Below, piece by piece: positions 14,621-40,577 of a DNA stretch of 64,000 nucleotides. Numbering within the stretch: position 1 is the first letter of the stretch; the number at the start of each line of letters is the position of its first letter. The notes beneath the pieces are model-generated. The model did not search any database. It was given only the letters and a program-made list of their open reading frames with translations, and was not told where the DNA came from. The position numbers were made by a program, and so were the translations under genes. This stretch comes from a virus: UHGV virus genome UHGV-0371537; one strand, written 5' to 3'.

Positions 14621-15289
14621 ATGCAAGAGATCACTCTCTCCGAACGTACACTTCAGTTGCTGGCCAACTTTGAGACCATCAACCCTTCTATCGTTCTGAC
14701 ACCGGGTAAAATGCTGCGCAGCATCAACGATTCTTCTACTGTGATTGCCGTGGCGCAGATCGAAGAAGACTTCCCGTTTGAGTTCCCTATCCTGGACCTG
14801 ACAAAGCTCCTGGCCATCCAGCGCCTGCCTTCCTTCAAAGGCGGTAAAGCCGAATTCCATCAGGACTACATCCTGCTGAAAGGTGAAAGCTCTCAGTTGC
14901 AGTTCTGGCGCTCTGCGAAGGAACTCACTGTTGTCCCGGCTGACACCATCGAACTGCCGTCTGTCGACTTCGAAGCGATCATCACTCCAGAAAAGATGAA
15001 AGAACTGACCCGCGCCTGTTCTACCCTCGGCCACAAGACCGTGCGCCTGGTTGCTCAGGGTGGCAAAACTCGCTTGGTTGCAACTACCACTACCCTGGAC
15101 AACTCTAACAACTACACCGTTGAGCTGGGTGAAACTGCTCTGCCGGACTTCGTCATGCCGCTGGACGTTGCCAACCTGAAGATGATCGAAGGCAACTATA
15201 CTCTGCGCGCCTGTGCAGAACTGCAGATGGTCAACTTCCAGTCCTCCGACGCGACGATCAATTACTTCGTCGGCGCACAGATTGAGTAA
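14621..15289 (+). CDS. gp45: sliding clamp (T4 gp45-like)
   Basis: 222 aa; N-terminus TLQLLANFETINPSIVLTPGK parallels T4 gp45 (TALLKNFATINSGIMLKSGQ); followed by gp44/gp62/regA in T4 order. Confidence 0.8.
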   Translation: MQEITLSERTLQLLANFETINPSIVLTPGKMLRSINDSSTVIAVAQIEEDFPFEFPILDLTKLLAIQRLPSFKGGKAEFHQDYILLKGESSQLQFWRSAKELTVVPADTIELPSVDFEAIITPEKMKELTRACSTLGHKTVRLVAQGGKTRLVATTTTLDNSNNYTVELGETALPDFVMPLDVANLKMIEGNYTLRACAELQMVNFQSSDATINYFVGAQIE

Positions 15290-15314: not shown

Positions 15315-15318
15315 GTGT

Positions 15319-15340
15319 GGGCGGGGGTTTCCCGCCCATT
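15319..15340 (+). terminator. GC-rich hairpin after gp45
   Basis: GGCGGG-GGTTT-CCCGCC then CATTTG (weak T-run). Confidence 0.4.
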
Positions 15341-15368
15341 TGAAATGATTCTTCTACAAGAGGCTGAA

Positions 15369-16025
15369 ATGAGGAATCAACCGTTTGTATATCATTTGTT
15401 AGGAAAGGATGGTTCTTTCTATTTTGGTTCTAGAACGAAATTGGGTGCGCATCCTTTACAATTGTTCACTTCGTATTTCACTTCTTCACAAACGGTCAAG
15501 GAAATCATATCTAAGAAAGGTTCTGATTTCTTTGATGTGATATTTGTAGAATTGTTCGACTCTCCAGAAGATGCATATTGGAGAGAGCAGCAGTTGATTA
15601 GTGAGAACATTGATCACCCAAAATGTTTAAACAAATCATTTCAACCACTGGGTTGTGGTATCGCCAACGGTAGGTCAGCGGGACCCAAACATCACCGAGT
15701 TGGTGTCTCGAGTTGGTTGAAGGGTAAGTCTGGGAATCTTCATCCCATGCACGGAAGAACTGGTAAAAGCCACCCCGCCGCAGGAATAAAACCCTGGGAC
15801 ACCGGGGCTGCGCTGCTACACAACACCAGACCGATGTGGTTAAAGGCTGGGGTAGTGTATGATCACTGGGTTTCTACTGGTGATGGGTGCCATAGAATTG
15901 CCCGTTTGTTCTCTATCAAAGAGAACACCGCAACGAGTATGTTAAACAAATTCAAAGAGGGCTGGAACCCGTATGATGACGACGCTTGGGTTCTGTTCTG
16001 TAAACTATATCATGGAAATACATAA
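15369..16025 (+). CDS. GIY-YIG family homing endonuclease with NUMOD3-like repeats (seg-like)
   Basis: FVYHLLGKDGSFYFGSR (GIY-YIG-like), GKSGNLHPMHGRTGKSHPAAG (NUMOD3-like); inserted between gp45 and gp44; AAGAGG RBS. Confidence 0.65.
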   Translation: MRNQPFVYHLLGKDGSFYFGSRTKLGAHPLQLFTSYFTSSQTVKEIISKKGSDFFDVIFVELFDSPEDAYWREQQLISENIDHPKCLNKSFQPLGCGIANGRSAGPKHHRVGVSSWLKGKSGNLHPMHGRTGKSHPAAGIKPWDTGAALLHNTRPMWLKAGVVYDHWVSTGDGCHRIARLFSIKENTATSMLNKFKEGWNPYDDDAWVLFCKLYHGNT

Positions 16026-17014
16026 TGTCTAATATCACGATTGTAAAAGACCAGTACGCTTGGGAGAACCGTTTCCGCCCTGACAACCTTGATGAGATTA
16101 TCATCCCTCAAGACGTCCGTGCTAAAATCCATGGCTACATTACCAGTGGCAACGGTAACATTCCTTCCATGCTGTTTTACTCCCCTCAGCCTGGTACTGG
16201 TAAAACCACCTCTGCCCTGGCTGTGTGCAACGAGATCGGTTGTAAACAACCCCTGATGATCAACGCATCCCTGGACAACAGCATTGATGTTATCCGTGAT
16301 CGCGTGATTCAATACTCTACTGGCGTGAGTGTATTCGGCGGTCGCAAAGTCGTTATCCTCGACGAAGTGGAGCGCCTGTCTATGGCGGCGCAAGAATCCC
16401 TGAAGGGTATTGTAGAGAAGGTCTCCAAGAACTGCTCGTTCATCCTGACCACCAACGCCAAGCAACGCGTGAACGAACCTTTGCGATCTCGTTGCCGTGA
16501 AATCGACTTCATCTGGAACGAGCAGGAAGCACTGGAAGTTCAGAACAAGTTCTGTTTGCGTTGCGTTGAAATCCTCCGCGCCGAAGGTGTTGAGTTCGTT
16601 CCCCAGGTTCTGGCTGCTATCGTTAAGCGCCATTTCCCCGATAATCGCCGCATTATGGGCACCCTGCAGGATAACGTCACCACCTATGGCAAGATTGACG
16701 AACGCGCCCTGGCTGTCTTGAAAGCGGCTGACCTTGGTACTCTGGTCGGCATGCTGAAAGCCAATGACTGGGCTGGTATGAAGCAGTGGGTGACTGACAA
16801 CCAGAACTACATCACAGAAGACTTCTATTCTCGCTTCTTCCAGTTCTGTGTACCGCAAGACAAAGAGAAGCCGATGATGGTTCAGAACGAGTCCATCCCA
16901 GACCTGGTCTGCGTCTGCGGCCAGTCACAAATCGAACATCGTCAGGTGGGTGATGTGTGGCTTCACGCCGTTTATTTCCTGACCAACGTCATGCTCAACA
17001 TTAAGTGGAAGTGA
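16025..17014 (+). CDS. gp44: clamp loader large subunit (T4 gp44-like AAA+ ATPase)
   Basis: Walker A SPQPGTGKTT, VVILDEVERL (DExx), SRCREI sensor; aligns to recalled T4 gp44. Confidence 0.85.
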   Translation: MSNITIVKDQYAWENRFRPDNLDEIIIPQDVRAKIHGYITSGNGNIPSMLFYSPQPGTGKTTSALAVCNEIGCKQPLMINASLDNSIDVIRDRVIQYSTGVSVFGGRKVVILDEVERLSMAAQESLKGIVEKVSKNCSFILTTNAKQRVNEPLRSRCREIDFIWNEQEALEVQNKFCLRCVEILRAEGVEFVPQVLAAIVKRHFPDNRRIMGTLQDNVTTYGKIDERALAVLKAADLGTLVGMLKANDWAGMKQWVTDNQNYITEDFYSRFFQFCVPQDKEKPMMVQNESIPDLVCVCGQSQIEHRQVGDVWLHAVYFLTNVMLNIKWK

Positions 17015-17018
17015 TACT

Positions 17019-17441
17019 ATGGCCGCCCCTGGATTGTTCGATTATCTGTCTGCTCTGAACAGCAGCAAAGAGAACCTTCTGCAAACCGATGATCCGGAAG
17101 TGCAGAAGGGCTTCGACCCGTTCATGACGCGGCGTGGTCTCGCCCAGAGCAAAGACACTCTGGTGTTTGCGCAGCAGATGAATAAGCTGCATGCCACCAC
17201 TCCATGGATGCAATGGTCATACGCCTTTCATTCCATTCCAGCGCGTAAGCGTTATGACAAATGGTCTAAGAAAGGCGCTGTCGACCCTGATGTGAAGATG
17301 CTATCCGAGTATTTCTACATCAGCATGGAGAAGGCATCCGAGTACGTCCGTTTCTTGCCGCAGGAAGTCCTGGCTGAGATACGCGAAAAGATGGGACGTA
17401 CTGAGCTAAACGCCAAAGCGAAACCGCGCAAGGCTAAGTAG
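17019..17441 (+). CDS. gp62: clamp loader small subunit (T4 gp62-like)
   Basis: 140 aa; IPARKRYDKWSKK resembles T4 gp62 VPRGKRYGKWAKL; between gp44 and regA as in T4. Confidence 0.6.
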   Translation: MAAPGLFDYLSALNSSKENLLQTDDPEVQKGFDPFMTRRGLAQSKDTLVFAQQMNKLHATTPWMQWSYAFHSIPARKRYDKWSKKGAVDPDVKMLSEYFYISMEKASEYVRFLPQEVLAEIREKMGRTELNAKAKPRKAK

Positions 17442-17471: not shown

Positions 17472-17936
17472 ATGGCGCGTAATACGCTGGACATATTGAA
17501 CATCTCAGCCGTCAACGATGAGGCCAGCATCGTTGATTGTATGGTTGAGGTTCAATTGAACCAAGATCGGCCAGGGATCTTCCTGGGGATCAAGGAAACA
17601 CTGAGCCGAATTGGGGTAAACACGCGCCAAGAGCCGAATACTCTGTACCAGACTTGTCATATCCTTCACAAGTATGGCAAGTATTATATCGTTCACTTCA
17701 AGCATCTGTTTATGCTGGATGGCCATTACAACGGCTTCAACCGTGAGGACATCCTGCGAATGAACCGCATCATCAAACTGCTTGAGCAGTGGAACATGGT
17801 GAAGGTCATTCACCCGGAACAGATCACCGAGGCCGCCGATATGTCACGCATCAAAGTGGTCAAACACGATCAGGTTCCCGAATGGAAACTGGTCCCAAAA
17901 TACATTATCCGGCCTACAAAGGCCAAAAGCGAATAA
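17472..17936 (+). CDS. regA: RegA translational repressor
   Basis: LYQTCHILHKYGKYYIVHFKHLFMLDG and EWKLVPKYIIRP match recalled T4 RegA (LYQSCHILQKKGLYYIVHFKEML...EWKLVPKYTIG). Confidence 0.8.
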   Translation: MARNTLDILNISAVNDEASIVDCMVEVQLNQDRPGIFLGIKETLSRIGVNTRQEPNTLYQTCHILHKYGKYYIVHFKHLFMLDGHYNGFNREDILRMNRIIKLLEQWNMVKVIHPEQITEAADMSRIKVVKHDQVPEWKLVPKYIIRPTKAKSE

Positions 17937-17952: not shown

Positions 17953-18825
17953 ATGACAACTACATTTTCTAAGAACGTGAATCTGAATCTGGCTTTCGGT
18001 AATGCAAAGGGTGATGTGACGTCGCCCAATTTTGACAAGATCCGCAATCAGGCGAAACTGGTGCTGGAAGAAACCCGTGAACTGCTGGAAGCGGCGTATT
18101 TCGACCACGAGGTGAAAATTGAGTTCACTGCATCTCCGCGAGTCCTGAAAGAACCTGCTGTTGCCGACATCAAAGGCATTATGCGCCAGATTCTGGACGC
18201 TCAGGGCGACATCACAACAGTCAATGACGGCGTGGCTCACATTGCTGGTTTCGACGGCGATGAGTGCCTACAGCGCGTTTATGCTTCCAACATGAGCAAG
18301 TTCGTCCGCAATGCAGCTGAAGTTGTTCCGGCGCTGGAGTATTACTACAACAAAGGCTTCCCGCGTGAAAGCCTGCGCATCGAAGGTGAATTTCCACAGG
18401 CGTGCATCAAAGTGGTGGATACCATCACAATCGACGGCAAAGAGTATCCAGCAGGTAAGTTCCTGAAGAACATGGCGACATTCAAAGAGCCTGACTTCTC
18501 TGATATGCTGACTGCTGAGCCTAAGCGCCAGATCACAGAAATCATCTTGACGGGCACAGCCACTCCAGGCCAGCTTGGCTCAAATGAACATGCTGGTGTC
18601 GCTTTCGCTCCATTCGACTTCGTGGACGAGATCGTAGAATATTCCAAGATGGGCTTCCAGGCGTATTCAGGCGAAGCGATTGAGAGCTACATTCCTGTGT
18701 TTGTTTTTAATGAAGACAACTTCCCAACCCTGCCGATGATCTGGGGTGAATGGAAAGCCAACGTGCGCATTTACGTGGCTAGCCCAGTGCAGTCTTCAAT
18801 CACCCAGCTGACCCGTATCGATTAA
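17953..18825 (+). CDS. hypothetical protein; N-terminus weakly MazG/all-alpha NTP-pyrophosphatase-like (EExxELLEA)
   Basis: 290 aa; LVLEETRELLEA motif only; occupies the slot where T4 carries gene 43. Confidence 0.45.
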   Translation: MTTTFSKNVNLNLAFGNAKGDVTSPNFDKIRNQAKLVLEETRELLEAAYFDHEVKIEFTASPRVLKEPAVADIKGIMRQILDAQGDITTVNDGVAHIAGFDGDECLQRVYASNMSKFVRNAAEVVPALEYYYNKGFPRESLRIEGEFPQACIKVVDTITIDGKEYPAGKFLKNMATFKEPDFSDMLTAEPKRQITEIILTGTATPGQLGSNEHAGVAFAPFDFVDEIVEYSKMGFQAYSGEAIESYIPVFVFNEDNFPTLPMIWGEWKANVRIYVASPVQSSITQLTRID

Positions 18826-18849
18826 GATATCCGGTTATTCACTAAACAA

Positions 18850-18876
18850 CAGAGGCTATAATGGCCTCTGTTTTCG
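18850..18876 (+). terminator. rho-independent terminator after gene 17953
   Basis: CAGAGGC-TATAATG-GCCTCTG then TTTTCG. Confidence 0.65.
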
Positions 18877-18893
18877 TATTCTAAGAGGATACC

Positions 18894-20093
18894 ATGAAAG
18901 ATAAAGCCCTGGACGTCCCGTACTGCGGTGTCCGCGAAGAAAAGATAAAGTCGGCCAAACCGGTTCTCAGTCCGACCCATACCCGCCTGTCTTATGACTG
19001 GATGAGCGAGCGCTATAAGATCCACGTTCGAAAGGACGTCCAGCGTCTTCCTGCTCCTTGGACGAATAATCCTATACTACGGCAGGTCAAGTTCTGTAAC
19101 GTCCGGAGAGAGCACGACAGGCAGTCTCTTAACCTGATCAACAACATCGTCAACAACGATGCTCTGGGTATGGCAGACAAGATGTTTAACTGCGTGCTGT
19201 TCCGCATGTTCAACCTCTGGGATCCGATCCAGGCTATCGGCGGCGCGATGACGATCAAAGAATTCGCCAAGATTAATCTTGACGCAACCCGTGAACGACT
19301 TCAGAAGTTCGAGGCTGACGGTGGTAAGGTATTCACCAATGCCTTCAACACAGGCGGCCTGAAGCAATGCCTGGCTTTCCCTGAGATGGTTGTCAACCAC
19401 AAGGAGCAGCTCTTCGGTGGGATGATGGTGAAAGTGTATCGCGTTGGCCAGGGTATTGTGGACGAGATGGACTACAAGGTCGCCAAGAAGCTGGTCGAAG
19501 AGAATCCTGGTGAATATACCATCGAGGGATGGGAACCGTACATGCCAATGCGTGTCATCCGTTCCCTGAAGGCATTCGTCAACAAGTATCCAAATTACTT
19601 CCATGACCTGCTGCGCCTTGGTACTCCTCTGGAAGTATACCAGCGCATGTACGACGACATCGAAGGGCTTGGTCCATTCCTGGCTTATCAGATCTGGGTG
19701 GACTTCACGTACATTCCTGAGTATCCGTTTAGTGAGAACCACTTCACGGTTGCTGGACCAGGCTGTCGTGCAGGCATCGACCTGATGTTCCTGAACAAAG
19801 ACGGTATGACCCACGAAGAATGCATCTTCTGGTTACGGGACAACCAGGACGCAGTGTATTCCCAATATGGATATGTTCGTGAGCAATTCTGGTCTGCGGA
19901 AGAGCCTTGGGATCAGTGTATGAATGTTCAACAATTAGAAAACCACTTTTGTGAATTGTCGAAATATACCCGTTGTGTAGAGGCTTTACAGCAAGGTAAA
20001 AAACCGCGCGGGAAGGTTGGATACGATGGGGAAGGACAACCTAAAGCGGCGACATCTGGTTCTAAAAACCTACTAAATTTATTTAAAAAGTAA
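18894..20093 (+). CDS. hypothetical protein (conserved-looking, function unknown)
   Basis: 399 aa, AAGAGGA RBS, preceded by terminator hairpin; no motif I can assign. Confidence 0.5.
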   Translation: MKDKALDVPYCGVREEKIKSAKPVLSPTHTRLSYDWMSERYKIHVRKDVQRLPAPWTNNPILRQVKFCNVRREHDRQSLNLINNIVNNDALGMADKMFNCVLFRMFNLWDPIQAIGGAMTIKEFAKINLDATRERLQKFEADGGKVFTNAFNTGGLKQCLAFPEMVVNHKEQLFGGMMVKVYRVGQGIVDEMDYKVAKKLVEENPGEYTIEGWEPYMPMRVIRSLKAFVNKYPNYFHDLLRLGTPLEVYQRMYDDIEGLGPFLAYQIWVDFTYIPEYPFSENHFTVAGPGCRAGIDLMFLNKDGMTHEECIFWLRDNQDAVYSQYGYVREQFWSAEEPWDQCMNVQQLENHFCELSKYTRCVEALQQGKKPRGKVGYDGEGQPKAATSGSKNLLNLFKK

Positions 20094-20123: not shown

Positions 20124-20152
20124 AACAGGAACTTTCATTTGGAGTTCCTGTT
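20124..20152 (+). promoter_or_regulatory. RBS-sequestering hairpin ahead of the HNH homing endonuclease
   Basis: Perfect 10-bp inverted repeat AACAGGAACT / AGTTCCTGTT (loop 9 nt) encloses the GGAG Shine-Dalgarno and ends at ATG 20153. Confidence 0.5.
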
Positions 20153-21082
20153 ATGTTTTACGAATTATTGATTTCTAAAGGCGGTAAACCGCATTTTATC
20201 AAGAAGTATTTGAGGATGGTTCAATCTTTCAAATATTCTGATAGTGACTACACTGAATTACACCACATCCTTCCCAAGAGCATGTTCCCTGAATATTCTA
20301 AAGATAAGATAAATTTGGTTCGATTAACAGGCAGACAACATTATCTTGTCCATGTATGCTTGGCCTTGGCTTTCCCAAACACGAGAATGGTGTATGCTGT
20401 TGTAGCTATGAGAAAGGGAGGAAGAAGAAATAAATCAGGTATTCGGTTTAATTCTCATTTGTATGAAAGTTTCAGAATTAAATTCAGCGAACAACTATCT
20501 TTACAATGGAAAGGGGTTTCTCGGTTTGTGGGTAAAGACAACCCAATGTATGGGAGAAGAGGAAAGAATAATCCCCAATATGGGTATAAGAGAACTCCAG
20601 AGCAAGTCAAGAAAATTACCAAAGGATTGATGAAAATCCATGAAAGGATGGCTTCTGATCCGGAATATAAAAGAGAAGTTTTAGAGCAGCGTCGTACCAA
20701 TACGGATTTAAAGCAATTTTCTGAGCGTTCCCGCCAAGCAAAACTCGGTGAACTCAATCCTAATTATGGGAAGGACTTAACCAACTCTTTCACACCGGAA
20801 CAACGCGCCAAACAGAAAGAAAACGCTCAGAAAGGCATGTTGGCTAAGATGCCTTGGGAGAAGGGTAAATGGAACCCCGACAATGACGTATATTGGGAGA
20901 AAGCTGATCAATTCCTTGAAGCCCTGAATACGATGAAACGTTCAGAAGCCCTCTTGTTCGTGTATGGAACAAAAGATCTGAAGGCGTTTAATGCCACCAG
21001 TGGGATAATCGAACGTTTCAATAAAGGCTGGGAACCATTAAAATGCGTAAAATGGTTAAAAAGATATAAGGGTGAAAAATGA
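20153..21082 (+). CDS. HNH family homing endonuclease with NUMOD repeats (mob-like)
   Basis: ELHHILPKS...NLVRLTGRQHY (HNH), GKDNPMYGRRGKNNPQYG and NPNYGK NUMOD-like repeats; RBS inside a 10-bp hairpin. Confidence 0.75.
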   Translation: MFYELLISKGGKPHFIKKYLRMVQSFKYSDSDYTELHHILPKSMFPEYSKDKINLVRLTGRQHYLVHVCLALAFPNTRMVYAVVAMRKGGRRNKSGIRFNSHLYESFRIKFSEQLSLQWKGVSRFVGKDNPMYGRRGKNNPQYGYKRTPEQVKKITKGLMKIHERMASDPEYKREVLEQRRTNTDLKQFSERSRQAKLGELNPNYGKDLTNSFTPEQRAKQKENAQKGMLAKMPWEKGKWNPDNDVYWEKADQFLEALNTMKRSEALLFVYGTKDLKAFNATSGIIERFNKGWEPLKCVKWLKRYKGEK

Positions 21083-21422: not shown

Positions 21423-23441
21423 ATGTCAGAATTTAAGCCCTTCGCAGTAGCTGTTAACAACAACGTGCTGGCCATGTCAGCAACTGGTCTGTTCATGACC
21501 AACATCGATAAAGATGCTCTGTGGGATCTGTATCTGTCTTCTTTCCCTGCTGGCACCAACCCGCTCTACCGTGAGCGTACCGAGCACGACTGCACCTGCT
21601 GCAAACAATTCATCCGTAATATCGGTGGTGTGGTTACCATCGACACTGACCTGAACGTGATCTCTATCTGGGATAACATTCAGCTGGGCAACGAATACGA
21701 CGTTGTCGCTGCGGCGCTGTCTGCGTATGTCAAGCAACACGCAATCGTCGACGTGTACTTCAACGATACCAAGAAAGTCGGTGTTGAGTCGAATCACGAA
21801 ATGAAAGACGGTAATGTCCGCACCTACAACCACTTCCACACCGACCTGCTGCCCAGCTATGTTCTGCGGGCTGATGCCATCGCTTCTAAGAAGGGTGAAA
21901 TCCGTCAGGCGATTGAAGTGTTTGAGCGCGGCCTGCGTGAACTGTCTCTGGAATCGGCTGAAATCGTTCTGGAATTGATCGACCAGAATTCTCTGTATCG
22001 CGGTGAAGAGCACAAGGCGGCAGTGCAGGCGTTCGTGGTGAACAAGACCCTGTACGAACAGACTGCAGAAGAGAAACGCGCTCTGTGGGCTTGGCGCACT
22101 GGCTATCATGCGAACGGTCATACCCCTCACGGCATTCGTAATACCGTGATTGGCTCTCTGTTGGTAGACCTCAACGAAGGCCGCGACCTGGAAACCGCCG
22201 TCAAGTCTTTCGAAGCCAAAGTAGCTCCGACGAACTACAAGCGCCCAACCGCGCTGGTAACTAAGTCGATGATCGAAAATGCGCAGAAAGAAGTTGAAGC
22301 GCTGGGTCTGACCGATTCACTGGGTCGCCGTTATGCCGTGTATGACGATCTGACCATCAACAACGTTCTGTTTGCCGACCTGGCAGCACAGAAGAAGATG
22401 GACCCGTTTGCTCAGCTGGCGTCTGAAGTGAAGACTCCGACCAAGTCCCTGGACAAGGTTGAAGAGATCACCATCGACGACTTCCTGGCGAACGTGCTGC
22501 CGAAAGCGCACTCAATGGAAGTGCTGGTTGAGAACTCTCACACTGGCAACCTGATGTCCCTGATCGCTCCGGCTACGGCAGGTGCTCCTAACCTGTTCAA
22601 GTGGAACAACGGCTTCAGCTGGTCATACAACGGTGAAGTGGCCGACTCCATCAAAGAGCGCGTGAAGACAGCAGGTGGCAACGTTGACGGTTTCCTCCGT
22701 GTGTCGCTGGCGTGGCATAACAACGACGACCTGGATCTGAGCCTGAACGATCCTTTACACAATCATGTGTATTACCACAACCGTCGCTCAGCAACTGGCG
22801 CAACCCTGGATATCGACATGAACGGTATGGACGGCATTGACCCGAATCGCCGCCCGGTGGAGAACATCTTCTTCAGCGATGAGCGCAAGCTGCGTAATGG
22901 TCTGTACGAGTTCTATGTCACTAACTTCAGCCAGCGTGAAACCTGTGATATGGGCTTCGAAATCGAAGTCGAATACAAAGGCCAGACCAAGCGTTTTTCG
23001 CATCCTGGCCTGAAGCACAAAGATCGCACTCTGGCTGTTGTGATTGATGTCCGCGCCGGACAGGTGGTAGACATCCGCTCTACTCTGAAAGACGATGCTC
23101 GTTCTCAGGAAATCTGGGGCATCAAGACCTCGGTCTTCCAGAAGGTACAGCTGGTTCTGAACTCACCAAACCATTGGGACGGCGAGCAGACGGGCAACAA
23201 GCACGTGTTCTTCATCCTGGAAGGTTGTGCTAACCCTGTCGGCACTCGTGGCTTCTATAACGAATATCTGAAGCCGGAACTGGATAAACACCGTAAGGTT
23301 TTTGAAATGTTAGGTAGTAAGATGAAAGTACAGCCAAGCACTGAGCAGCTGTCCGGTCTGGGCTTCTCTACCACCCAACGCAACCACGTGTTCGTGAAGG
23401 TGAGCGGCTCGTTCAACCGCACTGTAAAAGTTGTGTTCTAA
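21423..23441 (+). CDS. large hypothetical protein (672 aa), unassigned
   Basis: AGGA RBS; no Walker, vWA or nucleotidyltransferase motif seen; first gene of a + strand block running to the NAD cassette. Confidence 0.6.
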   Translation: MSEFKPFAVAVNNNVLAMSATGLFMTNIDKDALWDLYLSSFPAGTNPLYRERTEHDCTCCKQFIRNIGGVVTIDTDLNVISIWDNIQLGNEYDVVAAALSAYVKQHAIVDVYFNDTKKVGVESNHEMKDGNVRTYNHFHTDLLPSYVLRADAIASKKGEIRQAIEVFERGLRELSLESAEIVLELIDQNSLYRGEEHKAAVQAFVVNKTLYEQTAEEKRALWAWRTGYHANGHTPHGIRNTVIGSLLVDLNEGRDLETAVKSFEAKVAPTNYKRPTALVTKSMIENAQKEVEALGLTDSLGRRYAVYDDLTINNVLFADLAAQKKMDPFAQLASEVKTPTKSLDKVEEITIDDFLANVLPKAHSMEVLVENSHTGNLMSLIAPATAGAPNLFKWNNGFSWSYNGEVADSIKERVKTAGGNVDGFLRVSLAWHNNDDLDLSLNDPLHNHVYYHNRRSATGATLDIDMNGMDGIDPNRRPVENIFFSDERKLRNGLYEFYVTNFSQRETCDMGFEIEVEYKGQTKRFSHPGLKHKDRTLAVVIDVRAGQVVDIRSTLKDDARSQEIWGIKTSVFQKVQLVLNSPNHWDGEQTGNKHVFFILEGCANPVGTRGFYNEYLKPELDKHRKVFEMLGSKMKVQPSTEQLSGLGFSTTQRNHVFVKVSGSFNRTVKVVF

Positions 23442-23921: not shown

Positions 23922-24716
23922 ATGACAACCATCAATCGTAATGAACCCAAAGGTGTTGAGCTGAAGGGTAAATCTGTTCGCGAAGGTCTGAAGCTGTCTC
24001 CAGACCTCCTGAAGTCCCACATTGCTGAAGTCATCTATGAAGACCGTGAAGTCGGCGGTCATCGTGTCATCACCTGCCACTTCAAGATGGATAATGGATT
24101 TATCGTCTGGGGCAAGAATAGCTCTACTTCCATCGACCCTGCCAACTTTGATGAAGAGTTGGGTAAGAAGCTGGCCTATGACAAGACCTTCTCTCAGTTG
24201 TGGGAACTGGAAGCCTACCGCGCCGTTGTGGAGAAGCAGATGTTGGAGGTGGCTACCGCCGATGCGAAGATAGACATCTTCCAGTACATCTCCGAAAGGG
24301 GGAAGATAAATCAGATGGCTGGTATGGAATTCTTGCAAGGCCACGGTCAGTCTTTCGTGTTCCGACATCCACGAGACCCAAGCCGGGGTTTCTGTGCTGA
24401 ATTTATTCAGACTGACAACGAACGCCACAACGAACAATTCAATGGTAAATCCCGAGAGAAGGTTGAAACCTATCTGCGTTCGTTCATGCACCCGGATGAA
24501 TTGTATTCTGAACTCGTTGTCCGTCTGGCAAAGACATGCATGGCGGCTTACAAGGGTGGGATCTACTTCAATGCCACCACTTGGGATAAGATGAGCGCCG
24601 AAGAACAGAAAGACTGCTGTGAAGGCATCAGGCGGCTCTTGCTGGCTCCGGCGGATTATATCCCAACTGATCAGAAGGACGCGCTGTTCAAGGCCATCGT
24701 CGATTCCTACAAATAA
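23922..24716 (+). CDS. hypothetical protein
   Basis: 264 aa, GAGGAAA RBS; antisense 274-aa ORF rejected; no motif assigned. Confidence 0.55.
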   Translation: MTTINRNEPKGVELKGKSVREGLKLSPDLLKSHIAEVIYEDREVGGHRVITCHFKMDNGFIVWGKNSSTSIDPANFDEELGKKLAYDKTFSQLWELEAYRAVVEKQMLEVATADAKIDIFQYISERGKINQMAGMEFLQGHGQSFVFRHPRDPSRGFCAEFIQTDNERHNEQFNGKSREKVETYLRSFMHPDELYSELVVRLAKTCMAAYKGGIYFNATTWDKMSAEEQKDCCEGIRRLLLAPADYIPTDQKDALFKAIVDSYK

Positions 24717-24826: not shown

Positions 24827-25681
24827 ATGTTTCGTTTGAAATTGAACGACCAAGATGTGTTCTATAAGCACTTCACCTTCCCAGGTGGTGAGGAACATAT
24901 CAAGATCCAAAAGGCTGGAATCCCTATCGGCCACGTCCAGAACGTGGTGATTGATGCTCACATCAAATCCTCTGCTGACTTCGTTGAGCTGGCACTGCTG
25001 GTTAACGCTGTTCGTGGCCTGGGTAACGTGGACCGTCTGACGGCATTCCATGCATATATCCCGTACTTCCCATATGCGCGTCAGGATCGTCATTGTGACT
25101 TTGGTGAGCCTCTGTCCGTGAAGTGGGCGGCTGAGTTCATCAACAGCATGAACTTTGACCGCGTGGCGATCAAAGACCCTCATAGCCATGTCGTGTCTTC
25201 TCTGATCAACAACGTCCATGTGGTCCCGCAAGATTACATCGTGCGTCAATATCTGGGCTGGTTCATTCGCGGCAACAATGCTGTGCTGGTAGCCCCTGAC
25301 GGCGGCGCGGCGAAGAAGACCGAAGCCCTCAGCCTGTCATTGGACGGCGTTCCTGTTGTCTACGGACACAAGAACCGTGACACCAAGACTGGTGAGATCA
25401 TTGGGGTGAGTATTACAAACCCTGAACTGATCAAAGACCGCTATCTGGTTGTGGTTGATGATATCTGCGACGGTGGGCGCACGTTTGTTGAGCTGGGCAA
25501 AGAGCTTCAGAAGCACGAGCCTAAGCACATGACGCTCTTCGTCACCCATGGCATCTTCAGCAAAGGTCTCTCTGTTTTCGACGGGATCTATGATGCTGTG
25601 TATGCCGACACTGTCTGGTGGGAGAACATCACCGCCGACGGTCTTCCTTTCAAAACTGAAAATACAGGACGTGTAAAATGA
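24827..25681 (+). CDS. ribose-phosphate pyrophosphokinase (Prs) homolog; candidate ADP-ribose pyrophosphate synthetase (Adps) of an NAD+ reconstitution pathway
   Basis: IPYFPYARQDR and VVVDDICDGGRTF match Prs motifs (E. coli IPYFGYARQDRR, VLVDDMIDTGGTL); 4-nt overlap with downstream NAMPT-like gene. Confidence 0.8.
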   Translation: MFRLKLNDQDVFYKHFTFPGGEEHIKIQKAGIPIGHVQNVVIDAHIKSSADFVELALLVNAVRGLGNVDRLTAFHAYIPYFPYARQDRHCDFGEPLSVKWAAEFINSMNFDRVAIKDPHSHVVSSLINNVHVVPQDYIVRQYLGWFIRGNNAVLVAPDGGAAKKTEALSLSLDGVPVVYGHKNRDTKTGEIIGVSITNPELIKDRYLVVVDDICDGGRTFVELGKELQKHEPKHMTLFVTHGIFSKGLSVFDGIYDAVYADTVWWENITADGLPFKTENTGRVK

Positions 25682-27342
25682 GCATGCGCCACTTAGATCC
25701 GATCCATGCAATCGACTTCTACAAATCAGGGCACATCTATCAGTTCCCTGAAGGCAGCGAGCTGGTGTTCTCCAACGGAACTCCGCGCTCCAACAAACTG
25801 TTCAACTCTCACCTGCCGAAGAACGGCGTGGTGGTCTGGGGCATCCAGGGCTTCATGACTTGGTTCCATGAACTGTTTGACGAAGCATTCTTCCAGCGCC
25901 CGAAGGCCAAGGTGTTGAAGAAGTATGCCCGTCGCATGAACAAAGTCCTGGGTCCAGGTCGTGTTGGTACAGAGCATATTGAAGCCCTGCATGACCTCGG
26001 CTACCTGCCTATCGAAGTCCGTGCGCTGCCCGAAGGCACCATGTGTCCGTATGGCGTTCCGGTGTATGTGATGTTCAACACCTTGCCGGAGTTCTACTGG
26101 CTGACCAACTATCTGGAGACTGTGTTCAGCTCTGAGATCTGGAAGCCGATGACGAACGCCACCATCGCCCTGCATTACAAGGCACTGATGGTGAAAGCCG
26201 CTATCGCTACAGGTGTGTCGCCGGACCATTGGTTCATCGACTACCAAGGCCACGACTTCTCCTTCCGTGGCATGAGCGGGTGGCATGACGCGGCGTCTTC
26301 CGGTTCCGGCCATTTGGTATTCTTCAAAGGCACCGATACCAACCCTGCCCTGGACTTCGTAGAAGAGTATTATGGCGCAGACATCGACGAAGACTATGTC
26401 GTTGCTGGTTCTGTTGCGGCTACCGAACACGCCGTGATGTGTATGGGCACGAAGGATGGTGAATTCGAAACCTTCCGCCGCCTGGTGCAGGACGTGTATC
26501 CTGATGGCATCGTCAGTATCGTATCTGATGCATGGGATTACTGGCAGGTCATCGACGACTATCTCCCTCGCCTGAAAGACATTATCATGGCGCGTAACGG
26601 TAAAGTCGTGATCCGCCCCGACTCGGGCGACCCAGTACACATCGTTGGCGGCTACCGCATCGAGGGGTTCAAAGACCGCGCCACGCTGAACATCAGCGGC
26701 GTGTCTAGCAGCACCGAAGTCATTCACATCGAAGAGACGAACACCTATCACCTGATCACAGGCGAAGGCACGATCAATTCTCTGATGGCAGACGACCGTA
26801 ATATCATCAGCCGTTCTGAAGCAGTCGGCTCTATCCAGCGCCTGTGGGAGATCTTTGGCGGTACTCAAACTGAGACTGGTCACTTCCTTTTGGATGATCA
26901 CATCGGTCTGATCTACGGCGACTCCATCACCCTGGCACGTGAAGACCAGATCTTTAGCCGTCTGGCTGGCCGGAACTTCGCTTCCATCAACGTGGTGTTC
27001 GGTATCGGTTCCTACACCTACCAGATGAACACCCGTGACAGTACTGGCACGGCAGTGAAAGCCACGGCTGGTAAAGTGAACGGCGAATTCCGTGAGATCT
27101 TCAAAGAGCCGAAGACCGACAAAGGCGGGACTAAAAAGTCTGCACGTGGTTTCCTTAAAGTCATTAAAGACTCTCAGGGTAAACTAGTGTTGGTTGACGG
27201 TATCACCTTTGATCAGGTACAAGACGCCGACAACCAGCACCAACTGGTGTATCGTGATGGTAAGTTCTTCAACACTCAGACTCTGGAAGATGCGCGTGTT
27301 CGTGCTGCTCCTCTGGTGGCGGAACTGGCCTCACAAATCTGA
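25678..27342 (+). CDS. nicotinamide phosphoribosyltransferase (NAMPT) homolog; candidate nicotinamide ADP-ribose transferase (Namat)
   Basis: 554 aa; N-terminal AIDFYKSGHIYQF resembles the NAMPT DSYK region; family call from memory; no NMNAT (HxGH) gene seen nearby. Confidence 0.75.
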   Translation: MSMRHLDPIHAIDFYKSGHIYQFPEGSELVFSNGTPRSNKLFNSHLPKNGVVVWGIQGFMTWFHELFDEAFFQRPKAKVLKKYARRMNKVLGPGRVGTEHIEALHDLGYLPIEVRALPEGTMCPYGVPVYVMFNTLPEFYWLTNYLETVFSSEIWKPMTNATIALHYKALMVKAAIATGVSPDHWFIDYQGHDFSFRGMSGWHDAASSGSGHLVFFKGTDTNPALDFVEEYYGADIDEDYVVAGSVAATEHAVMCMGTKDGEFETFRRLVQDVYPDGIVSIVSDAWDYWQVIDDYLPRLKDIIMARNGKVVIRPDSGDPVHIVGGYRIEGFKDRATLNISGVSSSTEVIHIEETNTYHLITGEGTINSLMADDRNIISRSEAVGSIQRLWEIFGGTQTETGHFLLDDHIGLIYGDSITLAREDQIFSRLAGRNFASINVVFGIGSYTYQMNTRDSTGTAVKATAGKVNGEFREIFKEPKTDKGGTKKSARGFLKVIKDSQGKLVLVDGITFDQVQDADNQHQLVYRDGKFFNTQTLEDARVRAAPLVAELASQI

Positions 27343-38722: not shown

Positions 38723-38733
38723 GGGTTCCCACA

Positions 38734-39462
38734 ATGGGTATGAATTATGTTGATCGTGGCGAGAATGTCGTCAAATATTTTACGGACGAAGATAACGAGC
38801 GTGTCATCAGTATCCTTCGTGACTGGATCCCCGCCCGTAAGAAAGCACTGGCCGAAGGAACAAGACTTCCAAAGATCCCCAACTATGTTGCTGTCCAAGT
38901 CCAGCGCATCATCACCAAGATGAGCACCCGCTACAATTATCGTGACTATCCCTTCCGTGAGGACATGGTCTCTGAAGCCGTCGTGAACATCCTTCGTTAC
39001 CTCCACACGTTTGACGTCGGCCATGTGGGCAAGAAAGGCAAAATCAATTTCTTTTCCTGGGTGACCATGTGTGCTGATCGTTCCTTCGCTCGCAAACTGA
39101 ACATTGAAGAAGAACACACTTACATCAAGTTGCGCTCCTTTGAAGAGGCAGGCGGTTTCGCAGGGCTGGCTGATGACCCAGATTTCCAACAAGAGGTCTT
39201 CGTTGATGCTACTGGGATTGGTATGGACTTCCGCGAGCGCATCGGTAACTTCGAAAACAAGAAGGACGCCCAAAGACAGCGGGAACGCGAAAAGGTAGAG
39301 ACCGCCCGAGCCGCTGAATCGAACAAAAAGATAGCGAAAGGCATACTTCAATACATGTCTCAGGGTAAGAATACCCCAACAGCGCAGGCCGAAGACGATT
39401 CAGATCAGGACTTCGGTAATACCCAATTCGATCTGGAAGAAAACGAAGGAGAAACAGAATAA
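38734..39462 (+). CDS. gp55: late-transcription sigma factor (T4 gp55-like)
   Basis: Pattern similarity to recalled T4 gp55 (RYNYRDYPFREDMVSEAVVNILRYLHTFD vs [31 protein letters not shown]); upstream of gp47/gp46 as in T4. Confidence 0.6.
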   Translation: MGMNYVDRGENVVKYFTDEDNERVISILRDWIPARKKALAEGTRLPKIPNYVAVQVQRIITKMSTRYNYRDYPFREDMVSEAVVNILRYLHTFDVGHVGKKGKINFFSWVTMCADRSFARKLNIEEEHTYIKLRSFEEAGGFAGLADDPDFQQEVFVDATGIGMDFRERIGNFENKKDAQRQREREKVETARAAESNKKIAKGILQYMSQGKNTPTAQAEDDSDQDFGNTQFDLEENEGETE

Positions 39463-40577
39463 TGGCGATTGCTAAAATCGGCGATCTGCATATCGGGAGC
39501 CGTAATGGTTCCCGTTACGTTCGCGACTTCATTAAGAACTATCTCATCAATTATTTCATCCCCGAGCTGGTCGCCTCCGACATCTATGAGGTGTGGCAGT
39601 TCGGTGATACGTTTGATGTCCGTAAATTCATGTACGGGCGTGACAAAGACTGGATGAAGGATGAACTCACCCCTGCGTTGAAAGCGGCTGGTATCAAGTG
39701 GAATGGTATCGTGGGCAACCATGACATCACCCTGGAAGAGTCCAACCGCATCAACTGGCCATCCTACCTGAACGAACTCGACCCTGACGTCTACCACTAC
39801 TACAGTGAACCGACCGAAGTGATGATTGAGGGTGTTAAGACCCTGCTACTGCCGTGGATCAACAAGGAGAACTATGATGCGTCTATTAAGGCGATACAAA
39901 ATACAGACGCCAAGTACTGTTTTGCGCATTTGGAGTTGGCAGGGTTCAAAATGTACCAGTCCTCTACTTGTGATCACGGTCAGATCGACGTTACTCTCCT
40001 TTCCAAGTTTGACCGGGTCGATACGGGGCATTTCCATACCCGTTCGATGGAAGGTAACATTCAGTATATTGGGACTCCGTATCACCTGAACTGGGAAGAC
40101 TACAAAGACGGCACCAACCGTGGCTTCTATGTAGACGACATGCGTGGCGGTGAAGTCTTCATCCCTAATGCCGAGCACCAGACGCTGTTCCGCTACGTGG
40201 AATATGACTACACCAAATTGTCCTCCGATGACGAAGGCAATTGGATCGACCCGGAATGGCTGAACACAGGCTTGGGTATTGAAGGACAGATCGTTAAGGT
40301 AATCGTACAGAACCGCGACAACGCCAAGCATTATGAGAAGTTCTGTGATGCGATGAAGCGTTGCAAGTGTATTGACTACAACTTCATCGACCGGACGATT
40401 ACCGTGGCGGCCGAGAAGGTTGAGGTCACCGAAGAGATGGTGGCAACCGATGCGGTGGAAGTCCTGAAGAAGGATATCCGCGCCGGGAACAACATCCAGC
40501 GCCCAGAAAATGTCTGCAAGCTGGCTGAGTACTTCTACAACGCTGCCCAACAACGCCTGAACAAACTGGACGCATAA
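39462..40577 (+). CDS. gp47: recombination nuclease subunit (T4 gp47 / SbcD-Mre11-like)
   Basis: Calcineurin-like phosphoesterase motifs IGDLHIG, QFGDTFDVR, GIVGNHD, GHFH; paired with Rad50-like gene. Confidence 0.8.
   Translation: MAIAKIGDLHIGSRNGSRYVRDFIKNYLINYFIPELVASDIYEVWQFGDTFDVRKFMYGRDKDWMKDELTPALKAAGIKWNGIVGNHDITLEESNRINWPSYLNELDPDVYHYYSEPTEVMIEGVKTLLLPWINKENYDASIKAIQNTDAKYCFAHLELAGFKMYQSSTCDHGQIDVTLLSKFDRVDTGHFHTRSMEGNIQYIGTPYHLNWEDYKDGTNRGFYVDDMRGGEVFIPNAEHQTLFRYVEYDYTKLSSDDEGNWIDPEWLNTGLGIEGQIVKVIVQNRDNAKHYEKFCDAMKRCKCIDYNFIDRTITVAAEKVEVTEEMVATDAVEVLKKDIRAGNNIQRPENVCKLAEYFYNAAQQRLNKLDA

Follow-up and report, generated by a model that had tools for sequence, protein, structure and literature searches.

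A MazG-like protein and a clade-1 aGPT-Pplase encoded after regA in a ViI-like phage, and the polymerase-type C-terminal tail of the latter

The ViI pathway and the gene order after regA

In the DNA of ViI-type phages about 40% of thymidine (T) is present as 5-(2-aminoethoxy)methyl-dU (5-NeOmdU), and the remainder is T (PMC5889632, PMC11721090). Five lysates combined by Lee et al. in 2018, providing gp160 together with gp67, gp226, gp243 and gp247, formed this base on DNA containing 5-hydroxymethyl-dU (5-hmdU), and gp160 was listed as 'aG/PT-PPlase1' (PMC5889632). In the study by Lee et al. of 2021 the kinases make 5-PmdU, the clade-2 enzyme gp247 is the necessary serine:DNA transferase and gp226 is the decarboxylase (PMC8989533); later papers on structure and enzymology treat clade 2 only (PMC11472151, PMC13458397). 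We analyzed a 64-kb stretch of UHGV virus genome UHGV-0371537, referred to as the window, in which two genes of 290 and 399 amino acids (aa), here named gene 1 and gene 2, follow regA. On sequence evidence gene 2 is the orthologue of ViI gp160 and a clade-1 aGPT-Pplase (PF18723). It carries a short C-terminal tail whose form changes together with that of the DNA polymerase in four phage lineages, which is a new observation. The best explanation overall, to which we give a probability of about 0.7, is that both genes belong to the thymidine-hypermodification and replication apparatus and that the gene 2 protein is docked on the sliding clamp.

The sequence assigns the window to a ViI-like phage (Ackermannviridae, Aglimvirinae-type). 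A total of 280 phage records match the 2.1-kb two-gene region, and those with high coverage are all Ackermannviridae from Escherichia, Salmonella, Dickeya, Klebsiella and other hosts, the closest nucleotide match being Escherichia phage AV101 with 91% identity. Both open reading frames (ORFs) are found in full length in more than 100 phage genomes and are therefore real genes. Shine-Dalgarno-like sequences precede both starts (GGAG before 17953, AGAGGA before 18894). The order in ViI (NC_015296) is gp45, gp44, gp62, regA (orf00162), a 'MazG-like pyrophosphatase' gene (orf00161, Vi01_131c) and orf00160 (Vi01_130c), so that gp160 and gene 2 share their position after regA and a MazG-like gene as well as their Pfam family and tail type. 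A MazG-like gene after regA is also found in phages Vibrio 1.255.O and Cygsa01. The order regA, MazG-like gene, gp160 is the ancestral and usual arrangement in the Ackermannviridae. In Cygsa01 (PP179332 28636-37914) a single block holds HMUDK2, Pplase2, Pplase1, gp45, gp44, gp62, regA and the MazG-like pyrophosphohydrolase; the hypermodification genes are therefore linked to the clamp module even more tightly than in ViI.

A preliminary description of the window had placed two ORFs of these sizes at 17953-20093, downstream of genes 45, 44, 62 and regA, and both are found exactly there; the upstream genes are borne out by orthologue annotation (45) and by PF21328, PF16790 and PF01818. It had also noted, rightly, that the polymerase does not come next after regA, and tblastn with ViI PolA finds no DNA polymerase in the window. 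Its view that the two genes were inserted where T4 has its polymerase has to be given up: they stand in the usual family order, as in ViI, where the DNA polymerase lies about 57 kb from the regA-MazG-gp160 cluster, and they are therefore no insertion in place of gene 43. A split or fragmentary polymerase is ruled out by the negative tblastn search together with the lack of any polymerase domain in either protein. No other thymidine-hypermodification pathway gene was found within the window by tblastn with ViI proteins. The relatives ViI, PH4, XF4, Vibrio 1.255.O and Cygsa01 encode both a 5-hmdU DNA kinase and a dUMP hydroxymethylase.

The same description had called both genes unassigned. Pfam, PHROGs and two papers place them, and public profile libraries suffice to assign gene 2. 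It matches PF18723 with E 3.8e-81 and 273 bits (cut-off 25) over model positions 4-279 of 281; the present name of this family, formerly aGPT-Pplase clade 1, is 'HMUDK_hel, 5-hmdU DNA kinase helical domain'. The protein is 83.5% identical to ViI gp160 over 401 aa, in full length and in syntenic position (tblastn), and in phage SW16-7 the orthologue already bears the annotation aGPT-Pplase1 (PMC10458263). Neither gene 1 nor gene 2 is covered by an NCBIfam model. The suggestion of nucleotide- or DNA-modification enzymes is upheld by the MazG-like (DR2231-type) character of gene 1 and by the family and orthology of gene 2. Neither shows any likeness to a structural protein, folds of enzyme type are predicted for both, and the DNA of ViI-type phages is known to carry modification. 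A marginal match of gene 2 to a 'head and packaging' PHROG (E 1e-4) is overridden by the Pfam match and the fold, and a structural protein is thus ruled out.

A C-terminal tail shared with the DNA polymerase

The gene 2 protein ends in ...SKNLLNLFKK and is the sole product among the 354 window ORFs with the tail motif. In its AlphaFold model, which was built, like the family alignment, on 42 homologues, a linker at residues 382-392 is disordered (pLDDT < 50) and is followed by a short helix at residues 393-398. Across the homologues the linker is variable and the tail conserved. Tails of this type terminate four ViI proteins, namely the DNA polymerase (...RRVNLLSMMGKKG), the second kinase gp243 (...SSVSLLGLMRKA), gp247 (...TSVNLMSLLKR) and gp160 (...GSVNLLDRLKKPE; VNLLDRLKKPE compared with NLLNLFKK in gene 2). 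No such tail is present in ViI gp67, gp226, the hydroxymethylase or gp161. When gp160 and gp247 are compared by hhalign, their last 15 residues are the only aligned segment.

The tail is common to the DNA polymerase, Pplase1, Pplase2 and one 5-hmdU DNA kinase (HMUDK2 in the Ackermannviridae-like phages, the kinase of gene 37 in PhiW-14), and its form is specific to the lineage. The window phage's own polymerase lies outside the window, and the co-variation with the polymerase tail is read from relatives. The enterobacterial form, [VS][NS]L[LM]xx[LMF], has the same pattern in PH4, XF4, KpS110 and 3M; in PH4 and XF4, the closest relatives tested, the polymerase ends in ...RRVNLLAMMQKKKG. The form in Vibrio 1.255.O is K[TA][KR][KR]L[WF], found on the polymerase (KARKLW), Pplase1 (VTKRLW), Pplase2 (KTRKLW), HMUDK2 (KTKRLW), the gp33 homologue (KTRKLF) and two small proteins, and seven of its 665 ORFs end in L[WF]. 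Pseudomonas phage Cygsa01 has S[VL][MLF]D[FL]F, matched by 5 of 1078 ORFs, with ASVMDFFS on the polymerase, KSVLDLF on Pplase1, KNVFDLF on HMUDK2 and NDLMGFFQ on Pplase2, besides a small Cys-rich protein. In PhiW-14 the form is TTxLGxFF (7/669 ORFs), and the polymerase ends in AKLGAFFV, the kinase in HGLGGFFKG, the putrescine transferase gp109 in TTGLGSFFR, gene 72 in TTTLAQFAP and gp33 in TTSLGGFAAT. All 42 aligned Pplase1 homologues end in the enterobacterial, Vibrio or Cygsa01 form, and gene 72 of PhiW-14, which is outside the alignment, has the fourth.

The C-terminal tails of T4 gp43, gp33 and gp55 are interchangeable gp45-binding epitopes (PMC2988020). The tails of these proteins in T4 and RB69 are likewise short peptides at the extreme C-terminus after a flexible linker. 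The tail described here is lineage-specific, of one kind on all the proteins that bear it within a lineage, and common to the polymerase and, in Vibrio 1.255.O and PhiW-14, also to gp33, with a partial form on gp33 of Cygsa01 (SLTTLFG). By this analogy the gene 2 tail is probably a gp45 clamp-binding peptide, and the simplest reading would be that the clamp encoded upstream has the gene 2 protein and its partners in the pathway as clients. They would differ from the T4 and RB69 clients in including, by the same analogy, DNA-base-modifying enzymes, one of them a kinase and two of them enzymes with a helix-hairpin-helix (HhH) fold. The enterobacterial tail is hydrophobic and basic, in contrast to the hydrophobic and acidic tails of T4 and RB69. 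In eukaryotes, DNMT1 is a DNA-modifying enzyme that is brought to new DNA by a peptide binding the clamp PCNA. The likeness of this pair to the proposed docking of gene 2 on gp45 is one of analogy only, as both the proteins and the chemistry are unrelated.

Three points weigh against clamp docking. Neither gp33 (…LKSKKLI) nor gp55 of ViI has a clear enterobacterial tail form. The proposed binding is argued from analogy and co-variation, and another protein of the replisome could be the partner. Finally, the only comparable claim made before, that a phage enzyme modifying DNA (T4 alpha-GT) binds gp45, has recently been contested (bioRxiv 10.64898/2025.12.06.692756). No mention of a link between the tail and the clamp was found in the hypermodification papers or by literature search, and the word 'clamp' is absent from PMC8989533.

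Small Cys-rich, zinc-finger-like proteins (CxCGG...CxxC) with the polymerase-type tail of the respective lineage were also observed in ViI, Vibrio 1.255.O and Cygsa01, and are candidates for further clamp clients. In PhiW-14 the other two of the seven matching ORFs, a PD-(D/E)XK exonuclease and an NrdA.1-like protein, also end in ...LGxFF (NC_013697 26496-27356 + and 81188-81487 +).

Fold, conserved residues and possible chemistry of gene 2

The AlphaFold model of gene 2 is confident (pLDDT 88.9). The predicted fold is alpha-helical and of the HhH DNA-glycosylase type, and also resembles the solved transferase gp46 of PaMx11. Of the checks proposed in the preliminary description, the Foldseek search with this model returned nothing significant. 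Searches of the PDB with the gene 2 sequence and with the family profile found nothing, and the sequence of ViI gp247 had no match there either. Residues invariant in the gene 2 alignment are N69/R72/D75/R76, T148-K157 (FTNAFNTGGLK), F279/S280, GPGC (288-291) and E349-N350-x-x-C353-E354-x-x-K357. The segment GLGPFLAYQIWVD may be the HhH element. A weak hhalign match of the gene 2 family to Pplase2 stops just before the G-R-L-S-A-W segment of the latter.

Gene 72 of PhiW-14 is a PF18723 member that keeps C-E-x-S-K-Y, and it lacks C291 and E349; C353 and E354 are therefore the only universal catalytic candidates. In clade-2 enzymes an essential Cys is accompanied by a Glu close by (PMC8989533); the motif is E222-T223-x-x-C226 in the phage 15599 enzyme (PMC13458397) and E282-T283-x3-C287-x2-K290 in ViI gp247. 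The gene 2 motif E-N-x-x-C-E-x-x-K is thus set beside E-T-x-x-(x)-C-x-x-K of clade 2, and the candidate C353, taken from the sequence, beside the essential Cys287 of gp247 and Cys226 of the 15599 enzyme. The likeness is suggestive. The clade-2 proteins (PF18724: ViI gp247, M6 gp51, PaMx11 gp46 [PDB 8z2m], PhiW-14 gp109 and the DADT of phage 15599) have no significant sequence or profile similarity to gene 2, and gene 2 does not match PF18724 at E <= 0.1. We do not claim homology at the sequence level or aligned catalytic residues between clades 1 and 2.

Gene 2 is most likely catalytic and would act on 5-hmdU or 5-PmdU in nascent DNA. The fold, the conserved Cys-Glu, the confinement of the family to 5-hmdU systems and the tail that gene 2 has in common with the kinase and the transferase speak for this. 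In the proposed mechanism, the C-terminal ...SKNLLNLFKK would dock on the gp45 sliding clamp like the tail of the DNA polymerase, and the enzyme would flip 5-hmdU, or the phosphorylated 5-PmdU, out of freshly replicated DNA. The invariant Cys353-Glu354 would then act on the flipped base by Michael addition and exocyclic-methylene chemistry, as for the paralogous clade-2 enzymes, and clamp docking would couple hypermodification to replication. The reaction would not be the serine transfer that leads to 5-NeOmdU, because gp247 performs it. Several points tell against this catalytic role. It is deduced from sequence and model, and the published activity data concern clade 2; Table 1 of the 2021 study, which gives the enzymes characterised there, does not include gp160, and in ViI lysates gp247 was necessary (PMC8989533). 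Comparison of clade 1 with clade 2 by hhalign is not significant, with E 0.18 for ViI gp247 (tail only) and E 0.07 for a nine-sequence clade-2 alignment, so that the two Cys motifs are putative equivalents. The missing C291 and E349 of PhiW-14 gene 72 belong here as well.

The shared fold class with PaMx11 gp46, the conserved Cys-Glu and the tail common to gene 2 and Pplase2 would also suit a second X:DNA group transferase, which would use another nucleophile or sequence context and leave a minor or transient modification. Donors of clade-2 enzymes are widely diverse (PMC13458397), and glutamyl-thymidine is made by SP10, for which a clade-1 domain alone (gp186C), with no clade-2 enzyme, is reported (PMC5889632 Table 3); from this it can be argued that clade 1 can be a group transferase. 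We nevertheless consider a second transferase unlikely: a single hypermodified base is reported in ViI DNA (PMC5889632), gp160 was unable to replace gp247 in lysates (PMC8989533), and the donor-binding residues of clade 2 cannot be aligned with gene 2.

SP10 also bears on the view, which we hold to be quite improbable, that gene 2 turns 5-hmdU (5-PmdU) not destined for hypermodification back to thymidine, with Cys353 attacking C6, the phosphate leaving and the methylene being reduced; a clade-1 domain without a clade-2 enzyme in a phage with glutamyl-thymidine speaks against such a role. No reductant-binding domain or cofactor motif was found in gene 2, and a second cysteine that could be the dithiol partner, C291, is absent from PhiW-14 gene 72, for which reason a dithiol (C291 + C353) reductase was dropped as the specific mechanism. 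What speaks for thymidine formation is that ViI-type DNA has T in place of all that is not among the roughly 40% 5-NeOmdU (PMC11721090), and that in PhiW-14 and SP10 5-hmdU is converted in situ to T or to the hypermodified base, the formation of T being stated as unexplained (PMC5889632). A clade-2 enzyme with borohydride converts 5-PmdU to thymidine, which means that the hypermodification intermediate can be reduced, and gp160 was counted as dispensable for 5-NeOmdU in vitro (PMC8989533). PF18723 members accompany a clade-2 enzyme in ViI, PhiW-14 and Cygsa01, and pair with a thymidylate-synthase-like gene in pelagiphages (PMC9599517). A variant that we likewise regard as quite improbable is a sliding-clamp 'toolbelt' of T4-related phages, in which HMUDK2, the clade-2 transferase and the clade-1 enzyme all use the polymerase tail and the clade-1 enzyme would turn leftover 5-PmdU into T, setting the mix of about 40:60.

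The name HMUDK_hel, the tail shared with HMUDK2 and the fusion of a PF18723-type domain to the kinase in SP10 gp186 (PMC5889632 Table 3) point in another direction, namely that gene 2 is a non-catalytic, accessory partner of the 5-hmdU DNA kinase that binds DNA and flips bases. The SP10 kinase domain is active alone (PMC8989533), the gene 2 homologue is unfused in most phages, and a Cys-Glu-x-x-Lys that stays invariant within a conserved helix marks a catalytic site more typically than a scaffold; an accessory role is thus decidedly improbable. That gene 2 is a genuine DNA glycosylase or nucleoside hydrolase, serving repair or the breakdown of host DNA, and no base-modifying enzyme is highly improbable, as association with 5-hmdU systems is what defines the Pfam family (PMC5889632), the clade-2 relative of the same fold is a transferase, and a search that was not rigorous identified no GPD-type catalytic aspartate signature in gene 2. 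The preferred reading remains that of an enzyme acting on 5-hmdU or 5-PmdU in newly made DNA.

Gene 1 and the neighbouring elements

Gene 1 is, by sequence, a DR2231-type MazG-like nucleoside-triphosphate pyrophosphohydrolase and the orthologue of ViI gp161 (Vi01_131c), to which it is 57.9% identical in full length and in syntenic position (tblastn). It matches phrog_2144 'MazG-like pyrophosphatase' with E 4e-131, and phrog_671 as well. The EExxELLEA motif of the preliminary description is present as EETRELLEA. A direct search of the PDB with the sequence found nothing. The family profile, built like the alignment from 48 diverse homologues, matches Deinococcus radiodurans DR2231 (PDB 2yeu and others; E 1.2e-7 to 4e-6) at profile positions 31-105, over the helices with the EExxE, second acidic and N-x-S-K motifs, all of which align. 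E40, E43, D82, D86, K169 and K172 are invariant in the 48 homologues. Compared with DR2231, an alpha/beta segment is inserted in gene 1 at about residues 118-190, and a C-domain of about 100 aa is added. An exhaustive homologue search gave 236 representative clusters, nearly all of which align to residues 1-190 only, and the N-domain occurs by itself in N4-like, PAK_P1-like, Ralstonia and Vibrio phages. No Acinetobacter phage is among the named organisms in the tblastn matches listed for gene 1. The C-domain, for which AlphaFold2 (AF2) predicts strands with pLDDT of about 75-83, is 35% identical to that of ViI, against 72% for the N-domain, and thus evolves much faster; a structural search gave no match for it and no fold could be assigned. 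The end of the protein, PVQxxxTxL[TS]RID, is conserved despite this fast evolution (window 18523-18822 +; ViI 38725-39588 -), and these last residues may be a second short docking motif.

Gene 1 would hydrolyse a pyrimidine deoxynucleoside triphosphate (dUTP and/or dTTP) to the monophosphate and pyrophosphate, and so favour the synthesis and incorporation of 5-hmdUTP. DR2231, its closest solved relative, is described as a dUTP-specific enzyme. This would be the role of the dTTPase/dUTPase gp18 of phage 15599, from the related dapT pathway, and of the dTTPase activity of PhiW-14: the removal of dTTP and dUTP lets 5-hmdUTP be made and enter the DNA. For the dapT pathway the involvement of a dTTPase/dUTPase has been demonstrated (PMC13458397). 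The domain of gp18 is dimeric dUTPase/dCTPase-like (PF08761 type), and its ViI counterpart is Vi01_058c, not gp161. Gene 1 has no match to PF08761, and its identification as the counterpart of gp18 was rejected, the families being different and ViI having its own PF08761 member. We propose a dUTP/dTTP pyrophosphatase by analogy and with modest confidence, because the N-domain is also present in N4-like and PAK_P1-like phages and ViI carries a separate dUTPase-family gene. The latter, Vi01_058c, lies beside the hydroxymethylase gene and is the more obvious dUTPase/dTTPase; together with the N-domain of phages that have no known T hypermodification, the lack of any Pfam or NCBIfam family at E <= 0.1 and of any match to a curated MazG model, and the mediocre AF2 model (pLDDT 69.6), it weighs against this role. 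The presence of the N-domain in N4-like, PAK_P1-like and jumbo phages and of two further NTP pyrophosphohydrolases in ViI, one of them the dUTPase-family protein of the hydroxymethylase cluster, would agree with a general house-cleaning or (p)ppGpp/dNTP-directed MazG unrelated to pyrimidine pools. This is possible and we find it doubtful, given the specificity of DR2231 and the stable linkage of the gene to the clamp/regA module in three 5-hmdU-modifying lineages.

The features of the locus are collected in Table 1. The record of Dickeya phage LIMEstone1 annotates a terminator in the region matching the hairpin between gene 1 and gene 2. Sigma-70-type promoter matches in the region are not above shuffled sequence (7 found, 9.1 expected). 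The GIY-YIG/SegE-like ORF looks like a recent mobile insertion, because AV101 and ViI have no gene at that place. An HNH homing-endonuclease gene comes immediately after gene 2 in the window, and none follows gp160 in ViI. The GGAG and start codon of this HNH gene lie inside a hairpin with a 10-bp stem (20126-20154), an arrangement that suggests control at the level of translation. The DNA polymerase genes of PH4, XF4 and Vibrio 1.255.O (MG592621 133401-138842) are in two or three pieces through homing-endonuclease or intron insertions, and those of ViI, KpS110 and 3M are intact. The ribose-phosphate pyrophosphokinase and nicotinamide phosphoribosyltransferase genes form an NAD+ salvage pair, and published work discusses such pairs as a means of countering NAD-depleting defences.

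Table 1. Features of the two-gene locus and its surroundings in the window, and tail-bearing Cys-rich proteins of related phages.
Feature	Position	Strand	Basis or remark
Gene 45, sliding clamp	14621-15289	+	orthologue of AV101 and ViI gene annotated gp45; no Pfam match
GIY-YIG/SegE-like homing-endonuclease ORF between genes 45 and 44	15315-16025	+	weak Pfam matches
Gene 44, clamp loader	16025-17014	+	PF21328 Gp44_lid
Gene 62, clamp loader	17019-17441	+	PF16790
regA	17472-17936	+	PF01818
Gene 1	17953-18825	+	290 aa, ATG start; ORF list
Gene 1, N-terminal all-alpha pyrophosphohydrolase domain, residues 1-190	17953-18522	+	stands alone in other phages; 72% identical to ViI
Gene 1, EETRELLEA, first acidic metal-binding motif, residues 39-47	18067-18093	+	E40, E43 invariant; aligns with DR2231 EExxE
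Gene 1, DAQGD, second acidic motif, residues 82-86	18196-18210	+	D82, D86 invariant; aligns with DR2231 E/DxxD helix
Gene 1, C-terminal beta-rich domain, residues 191-290, conserved end ...TxL[TS]RID	18523-18822	+	AF2 strands; in part of Ackermannviridae only
Intergenic hairpin, 11-bp stem then T-rich run, terminator- or attenuator-like	18848-18872	+	pattern scan and sequence
Gene 2	18894-20093	+	399 aa, ATG start; ORF list
Gene 2, GLGPFLAYQIWVD, HhH-like G-x-G segment, residues 258-270	19665-19703	+	F262, L263, Y265, Q266, D270 invariant
Gene 2, ENHFCELSKY, Cys353-Glu354 motif, residues 349-358, candidate catalytic centre	19938-19967	+	E349, N350, C353, E354, K357 invariant
Gene 2, SGSKNLLNLFKK, polymerase-type C-terminal tail, residues 388-399, proposed gp45 clamp-binding peptide	20055-20090	+	1/354 window ORFs with motif
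HNH/NUMOD3 homing-endonuclease gene directly after gene 2	20153-21082	+	phrog_655; in AV101, absent from ViI
672-aa protein, function not assigned	21423-23441	+	phrog_1735, E = 0; conserved across Ackermannviridae, no Pfam domain
264-aa protein, N-terminal Phage_gp49_66 domain	23922-24716	+	PF13876, E 4.5e-12
Ribose-phosphate pyrophosphokinase	24827-25681	+	overlaps next gene
Nicotinamide phosphoribosyltransferase	25678-27342	+	NAD+ salvage pair with preceding gene
Tail-bearing Cys-rich protein, ViI	NC_015296 30355-30567	-	
Tail-bearing Cys-rich protein, Vibrio 1.255.O	MG592621 60040-60306	+	
Tail-bearing Cys-rich protein, Cygsa01	PP179332 109399-109710	-	

Both genes are of known kinds, being the orthologues of gp161 and gp160; the clamp-type tail that the clade-1 enzyme has in common with its partners may be new, and its proposed role can be tested. 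The two genes indicate that the DNA of the window phage carries hypermodified thymidine derived from 5-hmdU, a point of importance for restriction digestion and sequencing and for how the phage escapes host nucleases. The clade-1 enzyme is a conserved protein of the pathway and a candidate for the conversion of 5-hmdU to thymidine or for a second product on DNA. Three DNA-acting hypermodification proteins with the polymerase-type tail would offer a concrete account, cheap to test, of how modification is coupled to replication in these phages.

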